A stretch of 64,000 bases of DNA from Candidatus Hadarchaeum sp. Lineage in GTDB: Archaea > Hadarchaeota > Hadarchaeia > Hadarchaeales > Hadarchaeaceae. A model generated the notes under the pieces. The model worked only from the letters and a program-made list of their open reading frames with translations, was not told where the DNA came from and made no database searches. Shown here piece after piece: positions 912 to 43,079 of the stretch (position 1 is its first letter; every line of letters begins with the position of its first letter). A program made the position numbers and the translations under genes. The stretch covers positions 64,001 to 128,000 of the forward strand of contig NZ_JAVZIN010000002.1 of assembly GCF_038871235.1 (NCBI RefSeq), given 5' to 3'.

Positions 912-1471
912 AAGGTCACTTTAGGAACCGCTCGCTCTTTCTCCGTAATCTCAAAATAGGGCTTCTGCTCGGTCCTGCCCATCCTCTGAGCAAACCATCG
1001 CCCGGGGAAAGTCGTAATTGCGTTGTTATAAGCAAGCACTGAGTCGTTATAGAATTGTCTGGCGTAGGCAATTTTGCTCTCGATACCGTCGAGCTGCTCT
1101 TGGAGTAATTTAAAGTTCTCGCTGGCCTTGAGGTTTGGGTAGTTCTCAGCCAAGGCAAAAATAGTCTTCATCGCTGCCGCTAACTCAACTCCTGCATCCA
1201 TCTTATCCTTAACCGTCTGGGCCCCCATCATCCTTTCCCGAGCCTTGGTCACCATTTCAATGGCTTTTTTCTCGTGCGCCATGTAACCCTTAACAGTTTC
1301 CACAAGGTTGGGTACCAAATCAGCTCTTTTCTTGAGTTGTACGTCTATCTGTGCCCACGCATTATCAATTCTGTTTGACAGGGAGATTATCCGATTGTAA
1401 TAGTTGAAAAACAGGGCGACTATCACCAGCAAAACTATTACAACAATAATGATTAGAATCCATTCCCACAC
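908..1471 (-). CDS. lemA: LemA family protein
   Basis: N-terminal TM; IDVQLKKRADLVPNLVETVKGY and AENYPNLKAS signatures. Confidence 0.95.
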   Translation of the reverse strand: MWEWILIIIVVIVLLVIVALFFNYYNRIISLSNRIDNAWAQIDVQLKKRADLVPNLVETVKGYMAHEKKAIEMVTKARERMMGAQTVKDKMDAGVELAAAMKTIFALAENYPNLKASENFKLLQEQLDGIESKIAYARQFYNDSVLAYNNAITTFPGRWFAQRMGRTEQKPYFEITEKERAVPKVTF

Positions 1472-1505
1472 TTTCTCGCCTACTGCTTTTTATGGCTCCT
1501 GACAT

Positions 1506-2267
1506 TTAAACATATCCAAACAACCTAATCATAAACTGCCAATAAATATCGCCGAAAAATACCGTTACGAAAACACCTGCGGCTAGTGCTGGCGCAAACG
1601 GCATTCCCTTTTTGATCCTTAATTCATCCTTAATTCTGCCCTCTCTGACCAGCCTCTTGAGAACTCCAACTTGATAACGGGTTAATCCTGCCGCCCTACG
1701 GGGGTTCGTGTATGTTTTATCCCAATCGCTTTTCAGGTAAAACCAAGAAGAAGTCCGATATATTTTGCCTCCTTTTTCATAAATTAGTTCAGCCGGAATC
1801 ATGCCCTCTTTCAGCTCGGTGATCTTAACTGTCGCATAAAAAGCGCTCCCCCCTCGTGCACGTAAAAAAACGAAGTAAACCAGCATAAAAGGCAGAATGA
1901 TCAAAATGCTGTTAAAAAGGATGGTCAGGGGTACGGGGTAAATCGGGTTTTCTGTGGGCATTTTATATCCGTAGAGCAAGGCCCCAAGCGCGGTGAACAG
2001 TTTAACGTCTCCACCTGCCCACCCCCCCGTCCGCCAGAGAAGATAACCAATGGCGAAAGAGATTGCAGCACCGAGAACTCCGGATATCATGACGAAAAAA
2101 TCAAGCGAAAAAATTCCAAGAAGAATATAGTAAATTATGCCGAAGAAAATCATGGTAAAATTCAGTTCGTTAGGTATTATGCGTTTGCGCAGATCAGTAT
2201 ATACTGCAATGATTGAACCAACCACTGCAATAACAGTGGGTATAAAATCAAAACCCATCAAGCTCAT
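1506..2267 (-). CDS. A24-family prepilin peptidase
   Basis: TDLRKRIIPN and GGDVK aspartate motifs, C-terminal PFAP; lies downstream of the pilin. Confidence 0.88.
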   Translation of the reverse strand: MSLMGFDFIPTVIAVVGSIIAVYTDLRKRIIPNELNFTMIFFGIIYYILLGIFSLDFFVMISGVLGAAISFAIGYLLWRTGGWAGGDVKLFTALGALLYGYKMPTENPIYPVPLTILFNSILIILPFMLVYFVFLRARGGSAFYATVKITELKEGMIPAELIYEKGGKIYRTSSWFYLKSDWDKTYTNPRRAAGLTRYQVGVLKRLVREGRIKDELRIKKGMPFAPALAAGVFVTVFFGDIYWQFMIRLFGYV

Positions 2268-2430
2268 ACACTCAGTTTTATTATAATTTGGAAATGGTTT
2301 TAGCTATTGTGTTCTTAAATTTTTATTTCACAAACTTCATCTAACTCAAGCCTTCTCTAACCAAAAACCAACAAATAAAAAAGATTAAAAAATTTGCTGA
2401 TTTTAATTAGTTAGTAGCAAAACTATTTCT

Positions 2431-2805
2431 CTAGCTCACGGTAGCCGCATCATATACGTTGCCCTTATATCGTATCTTCAGCAAATCTCCGGTTTGACAA
2501 CCCGAAGCGGACAGAGCTACTGGGATTCCTCTCTCTAAATCGAACGAAACAGTTTGCCAGCTTGATATAGCTGTAGCACCCCGATACACAGCATATTCCC
2601 ATTCTCCTGCGTTTATCTTGGATGGAACCATTGTACTCGATGGTGTAAAATTAATGTTGTCACCGTTCTTTACGGCAGTTCCTGTTATAATCGCCGATGG
2701 CCCTGTGCTTGTAACGTAGTATACGGCTATGGCAACTATGACCAAAACTGCTGCCAACATGAGTAAGTATTCAGTTGCTCCTTGACCCCTCTTATCAAAC
2801 CTCAT
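2431..2805 (-). CDS. Type IV pilin with class III signal peptide
   Basis: KRG|QGATEY followed by a hydrophobic helix (Q+1, E+5). Confidence 0.88.
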   Translation of the reverse strand: MRFDKRGQGATEYLLMLAAVLVIVAIAVYYVTSTGPSAIITGTAVKNGDNINFTPSSTMVPSKINAGEWEYAVYRGATAISSWQTVSFDLERGIPVALSASGCQTGDLLKIRYKGNVYDAATVS

Positions 2806-2839
2806 TTTATCCCTCCGGTTCTAACTCCGCGAAAAATTT

Positions 2840-2894
2840 GATTTAAGAACTTCTTTACGAAGTTCGAAAGTTTAAGTTTCTAAATCTGAAACTT
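2840..2894 (-). promoter_or_regulatory. Pilin promoter with two inverted repeats
   Basis: Minus-strand TTAAAT near 2841-2846; GAACTTC-N5-GAAGTTC (2847-2865) and AAGTTTC-N7-GAAACTT (2874-2894). Confidence 0.5.
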
Positions 2895-2922
2895 GCCGCG
2901 ACAAAATTACCGGCCCAAGCGC

Positions 2923-3849
2923 TCAAATTGATTTAGGCACCAAAAAATTTATCACATATCCTGCCAAAACAAAAACCACGGTTGCTACTATCATAAACGG
3001 AATGGTGTATGTGAGTCCTTTTGATATCTTTCCATATCTTAGGAGACCGACGACTAGGCTGCAAATAAAGGCCTGTAGTGCGTTATAAACCATCGCAATG
3101 ATGGCCATCTCTGAAGATATACCAATATTGGTTCCACCTACCCTGATGCCGCTGACACCAACCGTCAGCCCCACTATAAACGGGGCCGCAAATAAGGTCA
3201 CCGCATACAGAAACATTATCTGTTGCGTGGTCGCGGCTTTCCGTTCCCGCTGTATGGCCTGAATTTCACGAATATCGCTTGCAACTGAATCCAAAACATT
3301 GGCCAAAGCTGCACCGCGCTCAATTCCTTCTGCAATCAGTTGAAATGCTCTCTGAAACAAGGATGAACAAGATCTTCGGGACAGGGCCAAAAGCGCATTA
3401 ATGAGCGGCCTTCCTTTATTGACCTCAGTTATCACTCTCTCAAACTCTAACGAAAGTTCTCCGTAATTAGATCTAGCAATATCCTCCAGCGCTGAATCTA
3501 TACCCACTCCCGCCCTAAGTGTGCTCGCCATCTGATGAAGTGCATCCGGCAACGCCCGTTCAAGTTCAGCCGCTCTTCGCTGGGCCAGTAACGCCAACAA
3601 TCCTTGCGATATACTCACAAAGGAAACAATGGCAGCCAAAGGAGCCAGAAAAATTAACAACCATCCAAAGAAAAATGATATCGTCACTATTGCTAATGTC
3701 ACCCCGACTGAAAATACCACAGATATCCCCAAAAACTGCTCCGCGGATAGCCTCAGCTTAGTTGACTCCAACTTTCGGCCAATTTTATATCTAAATTTTT
3801 CTGAAAAAACCCGCCTCGCCAAGTCCGTTAACCACCGCGAGAACACCAT
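2923..3849 (-). CDS. Type II secretion F-family (TadC-like) pilus platform protein
   Basis: LPDALHQMASTLRAG and YGELSLEF motifs, multiple TMs. Confidence 0.88.
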   Translation of the reverse strand: MVFSRWLTDLARRVFSEKFRYKIGRKLESTKLRLSAEQFLGISVVFSVGVTLAIVTISFFFGWLLIFLAPLAAIVSFVSISQGLLALLAQRRAAELERALPDALHQMASTLRAGVGIDSALEDIARSNYGELSLEFERVITEVNKGRPLINALLALSRRSCSSLFQRAFQLIAEGIERGAALANVLDSVASDIREIQAIQRERKAATTQQIMFLYAVTLFAAPFIVGLTVGVSGIRVGGTNIGISSEMAIIAMVYNALQAFICSLVVGLLRYGKISKGLTYTIPFMIVATVVFVLAGYVINFLVPKSI

Positions 3850-38359: not shown

Positions 38360-38460
38360 TGGCGCCGGGGAGGGGATTTGAACCCCTGCGGCCCGTGAGG
38401 ACCACGAGCTATCCATCATCGGCTCCAGGCTCGCGCGTTACCTGGCTACGCTACCCCGGC
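38360..38460 (-). tRNA. tRNA-Ser(GGA) with a 12-nt intron (38411-38422), CCA encoded
   Basis: GCCGGGG acceptor, CGAGC/GCTCG stem around a 19-nt loop starting CTGGAG, long variable arm, GGTTCAAATCC. Confidence 0.92.
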
Positions 38461-40575: not shown

Positions 40576-41394
40576 CTAATCACCTATCATAATTTTTCTA
40601 AATATCTGGGAAAATCCGAGGTAGGTAATGAAATACCACCAACCCACCCCGAAAACGACCAGCGGGCCAATAAAGGGAAGGTCTATTCTGATAAACGGCA
40701 ACCAAGCCACCACCCATCCTTTAAAGTAACCGCTCAGCGTGATCCACAGGATAAAAAGCGGGATCATATAGATGATGGACGGCTTCAAGGTTTGCGACGT
40801 GTTCTGCATCATCAGCTTGTTTATCTCGGGCTGCTGCAATTGAAGTTTGTGCACCAGTTTCATGTCCCTCTTCTTCATCGCCTCACGGTATTCCTTCTGG
40901 AAAGCAGCTATTTTCTCTTTGTTCTGCTTCACCAACTCCCAGTTCACCATTTTCTTAGTTATTATATTCACAATAAATGATGCCACAACACTGATGCCCA
41001 GAATTATAAAGAGAGAATATTCAAAAATTGGCGACAGATGAACCCCCACCAGCGAAGCCGCTCTGGAGATATCTGATCGCAAAGAGAGGATATCGGTTTC
41101 AGTTGGTGTCTGAGAAACTGCTGCGAACTTGACCTTAATTTGCTCGTCAAGGGAGGAATCTGCTCCCGCCACGCTGGAGCTGAAACTAAACAGATAGCCC
41201 TCATAGGCCTGCGCAAGATGGCTTTTGGCCGAGTCGCTGTCGCCCCGGCGCAAGGATGCCGCTGAGGTGTCTAAGTTATTAATGATGCTGAAAAGATCGT
41301 CGCTATTTCCTTGCCCTTGGGCCCGAGCTAATCCTGAAAGAATTATAGCAGATGTCAGCACCAGAGCCAGCAGAATCGGCATCTTTCTTGGCAT
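40576..41394 (-). CDS. Oxa1-superfamily (EMC3/TMCO1/DUF106) membrane insertase with extra N-terminal secreted domain
   Basis: TM, cytoplasmic coiled coil, KP..Y.IP, C-terminal GWWYF...F.QIFRK; usual position after secY. Confidence 0.88.
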   Translation of the reverse strand: MPRKMPILLALVLTSAIILSGLARAQGQGNSDDLFSIINNLDTSAASLRRGDSDSAKSHLAQAYEGYLFSFSSSVAGADSSLDEQIKVKFAAVSQTPTETDILSLRSDISRAASLVGVHLSPIFEYSLFIILGISVVASFIVNIITKKMVNWELVKQNKEKIAAFQKEYREAMKKRDMKLVHKLQLQQPEINKLMMQNTSQTLKPSIIYMIPLFILWITLSGYFKGWVVAWLPFIRIDLPFIGPLVVFGVGWWYFITYLGFSQIFRKIMIGD

Positions 41395-41600: not shown

Positions 41601-43079
41601 TCACTCGCCAAAGAGTTTCCTAACGGCTGGGAACATTTCCGCCACTTGTTCTTTGGCTATCTCCTGATACAAGCTGTACATGATACCAACAGTCAACAGG
41701 ATGCCTGTCCCGCTACCTAGTGCGCCCAAAAAGTCCGCCCCGGCCGAGAGGAACCCTACAAAGGCACCACCGAGTAGAGCCGCGGTTATGATGTAACGAC
41801 TCAGTACCCACTCCATGACTCTCACATCACGCCTAAATCCTGGAATCAACATGCCGGACTCATCCAGTTGTCTCGCCACATCTCCTGGGCCCATCCCAGT
41901 CATGTGCACCCAGAGGTAAGCGAAGCCCATGCTGGCGAGAACTAATATCGCCATATAGATGACGGCCCGAATTGGATCGGCGGCTACTTGGGCCAGTCCA
42001 TTTGGGGCATCTGTGAAGTAGGAAAGCCACGGCGCATGAAGAAGGGCGGCAAATATCTTCAGATTGGCAAAAACCGTCATGGCCAAGATGACCGGAATAT
42101 TTGAAGTGTAGAGGAACCTTATCGGGTAGCGTCCCCTGACCCCGCCAAACCGACCGTATGCCAGCGGAATCTCTATTCTCATGCTTTCGGCATAAACTAC
42201 TATGAAAAATATAAGAATTGTCGCTATCAGTCCCATCATATTAGGCAAATGGGGTCTGAAGAACTCACTGATGACATCACCGCTGCTGAGTACCGTGCCT
42301 ATCAAATTAGGGATGACGCCGGTGGCTGGGTTTAGGGCCTCCCAGACCACCGTCATGGCAACACCGCCAGCTATAAACAAACTGACCCCGCTACCGAAGC
42401 CGTATTTTGAGACCACTTCATCCAGATAGATCACCACGATGGCCCCTAGGGTTAGTTGCAGAACAAGCAGAATTCCCGCTGGGCTCAACAACCCCACACT
42501 CTTGCCATAGTTACCTGCCAGTACCAGCATCGCGCCCTCAAAAACAGCCATAATGATTGCTAAAAATTTCTGAATCCCGGTGAAGAGGGCACGGTCTTCA
42601 CTCTCCGACAAATTTAAACCTATTATCTTGCTGCCCACCAAGAGCTGCATTACTATTCCCGCCGTAACAATTGGGCCAATACCTAACTCCATCAAACTGC
42701 CGGCATGACTTGCCAGAACGTATCTAAGCTGACCGAAGAAATTTTGGGCCCCGGCATCCCAGACGCCGTTATGATTCAAATCAGTATAAGGTTCTAAAGC
42801 GGTTTCACCAGGGTCCATCACCCCGTTACCATTGGCATCAATAAAGTCAAAGACTCCGTTACCGTTAGTGTCCACGAACGGCTCCCGCTGGGCTATGCCG
42901 TAGAGCGGAATCTGAGACATCAAGAAGAAAACAATCAGGGCCACTCCAGTCCAGATGAACCTCTCCTTAAAAGGAACCCTTCTTTTGGGAACTGCAACTT
43001 CGGGCAAACGACGAACAATTGAATCTAATGCATAAAGCTTCGAGCGCGGCTTCTCCATTTCCCCATCCATCGCTTTCAC
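41601..43079 (-). CDS. secY: Preprotein translocase SecY/Sec61alpha with insertion
   Basis: GSLMELGIGPIVTAGIVMQLL, GSGVSLFIA, YPIRFLYTSNIP and GTGILL motifs. Confidence 0.98.
   Translation of the reverse strand: MKAMDGEMEKPRSKLYALDSIVRRLPEVAVPKRRVPFKERFIWTGVALIVFFLMSQIPLYGIAQREPFVDTNGNGVFDFIDANGNGVMDPGETALEPYTDLNHNGVWDAGAQNFFGQLRYVLASHAGSLMELGIGPIVTAGIVMQLLVGSKIIGLNLSESEDRALFTGIQKFLAIIMAVFEGAMLVLAGNYGKSVGLLSPAGILLVLQLTLGAIVVIYLDEVVSKYGFGSGVSLFIAGGVAMTVVWEALNPATGVIPNLIGTVLSSGDVISEFFRPHLPNMMGLIATILIFFIVVYAESMRIEIPLAYGRFGGVRGRYPIRFLYTSNIPVILAMTVFANLKIFAALLHAPWLSYFTDAPNGLAQVAADPIRAVIYMAILVLASMGFAYLWVHMTGMGPGDVARQLDESGMLIPGFRRDVRVMEWVLSRYIITAALLGGAFVGFLSAGADFLGALGSGTGILLTVGIMYSLYQEIAKEQVAEMFPAVRKLFGE

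Follow-up and report, generated by a model that had tools for sequence, protein, structure and literature searches.

A tandem array of predicted calcium-binding-type loops before the plug of SecY in Hadarchaeota

The protein-conducting channel SecY/Sec61 occurs universally and is strongly conserved around its plug. We examined the secY gene in a 64,000-nucleotide stretch of the genome of a Candidatus Hadarchaeum sp. (contig NZ_JAVZIN010000002.1, positions 64,001 to 128,000; hereafter the window), in which the connector between the first transmembrane helix (TM1) and the plug is greatly extended. An earlier reading made from the letters alone (hereafter the sequence-only reading) had noticed there some 45 extra residues holding three DxNxNG loops, and had proposed an extracytoplasmic Ca2+-binding module. 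We asked where exactly these residues lie, whether they are maintained in relatives, where else such a sequence occurs and what it might do in the channel.

The insertion between TM1 and the plug

Alignment of the window SecY with phmmer to the solved archaeal SecY proteins delimits an insertion of 46 residues, 66-111, between TM1 and the plug. Against the Pyrococcus furiosus protein (3mp7), residues up to 65 pair with residues up to 54, and the pairing resumes with residue 112 opposite residue 56; the alignment to the Methanocaldococcus jannaschii protein (1rhz) breaks at the same place and leaves residues 66-111 without a counterpart. The extra residues noticed earlier are thus borne out, at 46 instead of about 45, and of the coordinates first given for them (42748-42884) the high end stands while the low end is off by one base, the insertion occupying 42747-42884. 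The normal plug sequence resumes at residue 112, as the sequence-only reading had also claimed, and the structure model places a helix there at residues 118-122. The Pfam Plug_translocon model is itself split by the insertion, with only positions 1-16 of its 35 matched, at residues 49-64. According to the topology of SecY, which was reportedly established by van den Berg and colleagues in 2004 in the work on 1rhz, the connector between TM1 and the plug presumably faces outward.

In an AlphaFold2 model of the whole protein (mean predicted local distance difference test score, pLDDT, 83.3; predicted template modelling score 0.82), residues 61-120 have block-mean pLDDT values of 75-87 and form neither helix nor strand, adopting instead irregular turns with isolated bridges. 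No helix is present in residues 57-117 of this model, and the helix-loop-helix flanks of an EF-hand are consequently missing. The insertion also holds no N-x-S/T sequon, so that N-glycosylation is not indicated.

Three loops of the form D-x-N-x-N-G-x-hydrophobic-D were found in the insertion, starting at residues 70, 81 and 100 (minus-strand positions 42872, 42839 and 42782), in agreement with what had been noticed before. They are the only three matches to the pattern D.[DN].[DN]G in the 31,409 residues of the window's stop-to-stop frames of at least 100 amino acids. The loops fit the Dx[DN]xDG-type pattern, with oxygen ligands at positions 1, 3 and 5, glycine at position 6, a hydrophobic residue at position 8 and acidic or polar residues at positions 9 and 12, save at position 12 of loop 3. 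In loop 2, Glu fills position 12 and makes up a full 12-residue EF-type loop. Loops 1 and 2 share D81, the twelfth position of the former and the first of the latter.

The Asp and Asn positions, whose conservation among relatives the sequence-only reading had named beforehand as a test of its proposal, are retained. In a set of 25 distinct insert sequences, D1, N3, N5 and D9 of loop 1 are found in all 25 and G6 in 24; in the last loop, D1 and N3 are found in all 25, N5, W8 and D9 in 24, and G6 in 23. Position 2 of the loops is occupied by 4-7 residue types and position 7 by 6-9. For the middle loop, counted by eye, the window's subgroup (11 sequences) keeps D1, N5, G6, D9 and E12 throughout and N3 in 10, and a second subgroup (5 sequences) keeps D1 and E12, with a variable position 6 and with Gln (4/5) or Asp (1/5) at position 9. 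Loops of this kind usually have Asp as the ligand, and Asn-Gly pairs are prone to deamidation; of the 100 cells that positions 3 and 5 make up in loops 1 and 3, 99 hold Asn and none holds Asp, and position 5 taken alone is Asn in 49 of 50.

The insert peptide is under purifying selection, since synonymous changes dominate and the ratio of non-synonymous to synonymous divergence (dN/dS) is low. Two Hadarchaeota loci (L001 and L004) differ over the 46 codons of the insert by 25 synonymous and 0 non-synonymous changes, and dN/dS of the insert is 0.01-0.08 where estimable. Non-synonymous divergence of the insert (0.03-0.15) is near that of the rest of SecY (0.015-0.12).

Kinship with an extracytoplasmic repeat

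A phmmer search with the first 140 residues of the window SecY matched 831 representative proteins at E <= 0.001, including SecY N-termini matched through the flanks of the insertion. Among the best 150 matches, 83 carry no copy of the motif, and those checked (4 by Pfam, 16 by alignment) are SecY/Sec61-alpha proteins. The other 67 are proteins of 336-4813 amino acids with 5-52 motif copies, aligned through query residues ~65-113, and the best of these stretches of insert against repeat reach E values down to 5.6e-31. Likewise, the repeat protein P0137 matches the insert region of P0020 at E = 1.2e-36. The repeat unit measures about 16 residues (15-16 in P0122, P0137 and P0171) and consists of acidic-Pro-Phe/Tyr-x followed by a 12-residue loop, D-x-N-x-N-G-x-W-D-x-x-E. 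P0122, P0137, P0171 and P0146 are tandem-repeat proteins of this unit. Some of the repeat-bearing matches are SdrD_B, GEVED, PilY1 or cadherin-like proteins, and short arrays of the unit occur in a loop of a TonB-dependent receptor (P0121), between the Ig-like domains of a lipoprotein (locus L011, positions 991-3678), and in S41 proteases, pilin-like proteins and others. Judged by its residues, the insertion is made of two or three units of this promiscuous extracytoplasmic repeat, which is nameless in Pfam and NCBIfam.

Searches with the pure-repeat proteins P0122, P0137 and P0171 gave no Pfam or NCBIfam match, and P0137 gave 0 matches at E <= 1 in a sequence search of the PDB. An AlphaFold2 model of P0137 has a mean pLDDT of 51.9 (60-81 in its first 120 residues); with this model, Foldseek returned no match at E <= 0.001, and hence no structural analogue, and the ESM Atlas returned only unnamed clusters with scores of 0.77-0.79. 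For the insert itself, NCBIfam yielded only a far sub-threshold match to CglD.

The insertion is directly similar to the tandem repeat EPFxDxNGNGxWDxG, has the same unit length and, like the loops of TonB receptors, carries the unit as a short array. The other hosts of the repeat are bacterial surface, pilus and outer-membrane proteins, with up to 52 units, whereas here the host is an archaeal translocon. Thrombospondin type-3 repeats, which are strings of helix-less Ca2+ loops, resemble the insertion in consisting of consecutive Asp/Asn-rich loops without regular secondary structure. Unlike them, the insertion has no cysteine and no match to Pfam TSP_3 at E <= 10; the pure-repeat proteins likewise gave no TSP_3 match at E <= 0.001.

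Precedents for loops of this kind were found in other proteins. The B domains of SdrD and SdrG (PF17210) share with the insertion the loop pattern D-x-N-x-N-G-x-x-[DE]-x-x-E, the insertion differing in that its loops stand alone, without the beta-sandwich body and without strands. In a chain of Staphylococcus aureus SdrD in the PDB, D-T-N-K-N-G loops align to the loop of the repeat-bearing SdrD_B proteins. Part of a bioRxiv preprint (10.64898/2026.05.01.722179) describes the A-B loop of the B domain as an EF-hand-like Ca2+ site without helices in crystals, and we infer that this site is the aligned D-T-N-K-N-G loop of SdrD. Passages of a further paper (PMC6232131) describe the stability of the B domain as governed by Ca2+ coordination. 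As to the general motif, Rigden et al. 2011 (PMC3123361) state, in the portion relevant here, that loops of this type are Ca2+ binders in a wide range of unrelated contexts, that homologues often differ in having a short loop or a longer, motif-bearing one, and that position 3 is frequently Asn, a residue less often accepted at position 5. The insert loops share with the Dx[DN]xDG motif its ligand spacing, Gly at position 6 and the hydrophobic residue at position 8, and differ from it in Asn instead of Asp at position 5 and in following one another in tandem within a membrane-protein loop.

Distribution, history and gene context

We assembled 130 Hadarchaeota SecY rows, comprising the window protein, 119 of 120 listed proteins (the fragment P0077 was dropped) and 10 genomic loci. 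Alignment to archaeal SecY, which the sequence-only reading had proposed as the way to define the insertion and its distribution, gave a long connector in 29 of these rows, 20 with three loops and 9 with two, and a short connector in 101. When the window protein and the 119 protein clusters are taken by themselves, the insert is present in 21 of 120 rows; its presence in 8 of the 10 loci is a biased figure, as these were partly chosen by a pattern inside the insert. An alignment of the two forms indicates that the two-loop form is without the middle unit (loop 2). In the 16 diverse SecY/Sec61-alpha representatives that were aligned, both archaeal and eukaryote-like, the connector is short and free of insertions in every case. 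Two region-restricted searches, made for further insert-bearing SecYs, returned 7 and 17 SecYs, all already listed and none outside this Hadarchaeota group.

Within the group, the distribution of the insert is patchy. On a SecY tree of 70 rows, built quickly under LG+G4 with the insert columns excluded, the three insert states need 9 changes, the starred branches impose a minimum of 6 where the no-insert state is concerned, and the insert-bearing P0026 is nested among insert-less sequences. Forcing the 21 insert-bearing rows into one clade cost 443.6 log-likelihood units (approximately unbiased test, p = 5e-59), the test having been run after the tree had been seen and on a group defined by the trait. 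A single clade of insert-bearing SecYs was rejected on this result. Proteins with and without the insert form close pairs, such as P0018 (two loops) and P0029, P0017 and P0027, and P0026 and P0039, which are respectively 94.8%, 90.6% and 83% identical outside the insert. In four of six such pairs, the insert-less partner has the same short connector, x-G-[QH]-[QE]-V-[ST]-E. This common connector looks like a shared allele and not like independent deletions. P0014, P0015 and P0019 look like simple deletions. The lineages seem to have changed by different routes.

A comparison of the window secY with locus L001 (positions 903-2378; 96% identical) revealed a mosaic of synonymous divergence over 46-codon segments, with values of 0.00-0.15 in some segments and 0.65 over the insert. 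The difference between insert and rest has p = 4e-4 in this one pair, uncorrected, and is not significant in the six further gene pairs compared in this way (p 0.12-0.6). The mosaic suggests that closely related Hadarchaeum lineages have undergone homologous recombination inside secY.

The window protein is a SecY by its curated family models, by its ten-helix channel fold with plug and by its row of ribosomal genes. The 492-residue product, translated from a GTG start codon, matches Pfam SecY (PF00344) with 235.6 bits (cut-off 32.2), the NCBIfam archaeal SecY equivalog NF006341 with 383.1 bits (cut-off 300) and TIGR00967 with 308.6 (cut-off 253.6). Foldseek with the SecY model gave 67 PDB matches at E <= 0.001, the best 50 of which are all Sec61/SecY-family chains, with TM scores of 0.64-0.84 to Sec61/SecY and of 0.70/0.79 to 1rhz. 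Archaeal SecY/Sec61-alpha proteins such as 1rhz and 3mp7 thus have the fold, the full length and the ribosomal-operon context in common with the window SecY, from which they are set apart by its 46 extra residues. Two SecY/Sec61-like representatives, P0173 (731 amino acids) and P0202 (481 amino acids), are each matched twice by Plug_translocon, P0173 also being matched by SecY over three stretches; these may be fused or duplicated gene models.

Pfam matches identify L18, S5, L30 and L15 upstream of secY, the start of which overlaps the end of the L15 gene, and an EMC3/TMCO1-like membrane protein, a cytidylate kinase and a Cbf5-type pseudouridine synthase downstream, which is the usual archaeal arrangement. 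The nearest genomic loci to the window come from Candidatus Hadarchaeum and other Hadarchaeota assemblies, among them Candidatus Hadarchaeum yellowstonense YNP_45 (93% identical). The gene after secY (40576-41394, minus strand) encodes the EMC3/TMCO1-like (DUF106-type) membrane protein of 272 amino acids, in which the family match covers only residues 129-269; the first ~128 residues have no family match and resemble a signal peptide together with an additional outer domain. Elsewhere in the window, a 98-nucleotide Rfam tRNA match (38363-38460, minus strand; 50.3 bits) is not reported by ARAGORN and may be an intron-containing archaeal tRNA. The coordinates of the features of secY are collected in Table 1.

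Table 1. Coordinates of the window secY gene, its insertion and the flanking channel segments (residue numbers refer to the window SecY)
Feature	Coordinates	Strand	Evidence
secY coding sequence, 492 aa	41601..43079	minus	continuous open reading frame; Pfam SecY, NCBIfam NF006341 and Foldseek matches
TM1, residues 37-56	42912..42971	minus	AlphaFold2 helix 37-56; aligns to N-terminal helix region of 3mp7 and 1rhz
Insertion of 46 residues, 66-111, three repeat units	42747..42884	minus	unmatched in 3mp7 and 1rhz
Loop 1 core, D70-D78	42846..42872	minus	motif match at 42872
Loop 2, D81-E92	42804..42839	minus	motif match at 42839
Loop 3 core, D100-D108	42756..42782	minus	motif match at 42782
Plug segment, residues 112-130, helix 118-122, directly after the insertion	42690..42746	minus	aligns to 3mp7 from 56 onward and 1rhz from 52 onward; AlphaFold2
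TM2b, residues 135-149	42633..42677	minus	AlphaFold2 helix 135-149

Proposed role, alternatives and meaning

Pattern, conservation and precedent together point to Ca2+ as the probable ligand, and on balance we favour the prediction that the insertion is an array of Ca2+ loops. It would consist of tandem helix-less units of EF-hand type, each offering D1, N3, N5, G6, a backbone ligand at position 7, a hydrophobic residue at position 8, D9 and an acidic residue at position 12. Outside the cell, in a calcium-containing medium, each loop would most likely wrap a single Ca2+, and all 46 residues together would take the shape of a compact, rigid knob at the channel's outer opening, tethered directly to the plug. 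Such a knob would most likely stiffen or stabilise the plug tether and so favour the closed, sealed state. We infer both the folded knob and its effect on the plug, and a measurable alteration of plug behaviour by the insertion is a good deal more doubtful than the loop array itself. Such a role would be modulating and not essential, because close relatives are without the insert.

Several observations weigh against the proposed calcium array and its action on the plug. Relatives that are 94.8% identical elsewhere in SecY do without the insert, so that any effect on the channel would be dispensable, an accessory and not a requirement. Beyond the immediate flanks, the six pairs with and without it display no consistent change elsewhere in SecY, and no docking site is therefore evident. 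At position 5 the loops have Asn where the strict Dx[DN]xDG motif calls for Asp, and position 12 of loop 3 is Ala. Finally, the insert alone stays below the Pfam thresholds, with 20.4 bits for GEVED (cut-off 24.4), 18.6 for DUF7151, 12.5-14.3 for EF-hand_1, EF-hand_5 and EF-hand_6 against cut-offs of 25-25.9 (EF-hand_6, 14.3 against 25), and 12.3 for SdrD_B (PF17210; cut-off 29.7), the last over profile positions 6-24 of 112.

Other explanations have to be set beside this one. An artefact of assembly or gene calling can practically be dismissed: we found nothing in its favour, the reading frame runs through without a break, 8 independent genome assemblies contain the insert, as do the 21 rows counted above, and the GC content of the insert (0.507) is that of the gene (0.506), which also leaves no signal of foreign origin in a test by base composition. 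The sequence-only reading had already held that the repeats are no assembly duplication, and this stands, as the DNA copies of the three loops are only 67-76% identical over 21 nucleotides. A biological alternative is that repeat DNA expanded in a permissive outer loop and is tolerated there without function. Such an expansion would suit the short, variable connector of other SecYs, the absence of the insert from close relatives and the promiscuity of the repeat, which occurs in many unrelated proteins; against this, purifying selection is strong, with saturated synonymous and few non-synonymous changes, and the ligand positions are invariant in the 25 distinct sequences, from lineages down to ~65% SecY identity, which makes a functionless loop improbable.

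The loops might also fold as proposed and serve mainly as a surface for docking or recognition, by the cell envelope, an extracytoplasmic chaperone or a virus, with the partner driving gain and loss. This would agree with the presence and absence of the insert in near-identical SecYs, with the rejection of a single clade, with the synonymous mosaic between the window and L001, which fits recombination, and with the occurrence of the repeat on pilin-like and adhesin-like proteins; the Ca2+ motif of TRAP-alpha, too, is proposed in passages of PMC7276530 for interaction with Sec61. However, such a surface has no known partner, the insert sequence is conserved and not diversifying, and no consistent co-changes accompany it in the six pairs, so that we regard docking as an unlikely main role, if somewhat less so than a functionless expansion. 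Binding of another ligand, be it a different cation or a glycan, or a purely structural role as Asn/Asp-rich turns appears about as improbable as the functionless expansion. Asn is strictly kept at positions 3 and 5, where a generic oxygen-ligand site would tolerate Asp, and the insert falls below the threshold of every curated Ca2+ family; yet D-x-N-x-N-G with acidic residues at positions 9 and 12 lies at the place that aligns to the loop of the SdrD B domain, for which part of the preprint cited above gives an EF-hand-like Ca2+ site in the A-B loop, and the missing sequon gives no indication of N-glycosylation.

A more far-reaching version of the proposed plug-stabilising array would make it a calcium-operated latch, in which bound Ca2+ gives a rigid tether and a tighter seal, and its loss a relaxed one, while recombination and habitat- or virus-dependent selection would maintain both alleles, the one that has the insert and the one that lacks it, in coexistence across Hadarchaeota species. 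We consider this latch a long shot; if it were true, it would amount to a long-lived polymorphism in one of life's most conserved genes.

The insertion is real and conserved, and it is apparently undescribed in print: literature searches on SecY with Hadesarchaea, on plug, calcium-binding and archaea, and on EF-hand returned no Ca2+-loop insert of SecY by title or abstract. What is new, as far as can be read from sequence, is a SecY that bears a known type of Ca2+ loop from a nameless repeat family. In eukaryotes, to our knowledge, the only links between Ca2+ and Sec61 run through separate factors. Parts of PMC7276530 present TRAP-alpha and Sec62 as Ca2+-linked partners of Sec61, with a Ca2+-binding motif proposed in the luminal N-terminal region of TRAP-alpha and suggested to act in the interaction with Sec61. 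The luminal domain of TRAP-alpha and the EF-hand of Sec62 thus also place a Ca2+ element at the translocon, that of TRAP-alpha on the non-cytosolic side, but these are separate proteins with no sequence relationship to the insertion, whereas here the element lies within SecY. No description of a Ca2+ link built into the channel itself was found in the literature searched.

Defining the ~16-residue repeat would annotate many surface proteins, and the unit could provide a minimal, helix-free Ca2+-binding module. For the translocon, a selectively maintained array of metal-loop type on the tether of the plug would constitute a natural experiment on how the channel is sealed and opened, with matched natural controls in the relatives that are 80-95% identical elsewhere in SecY and lack the insert.

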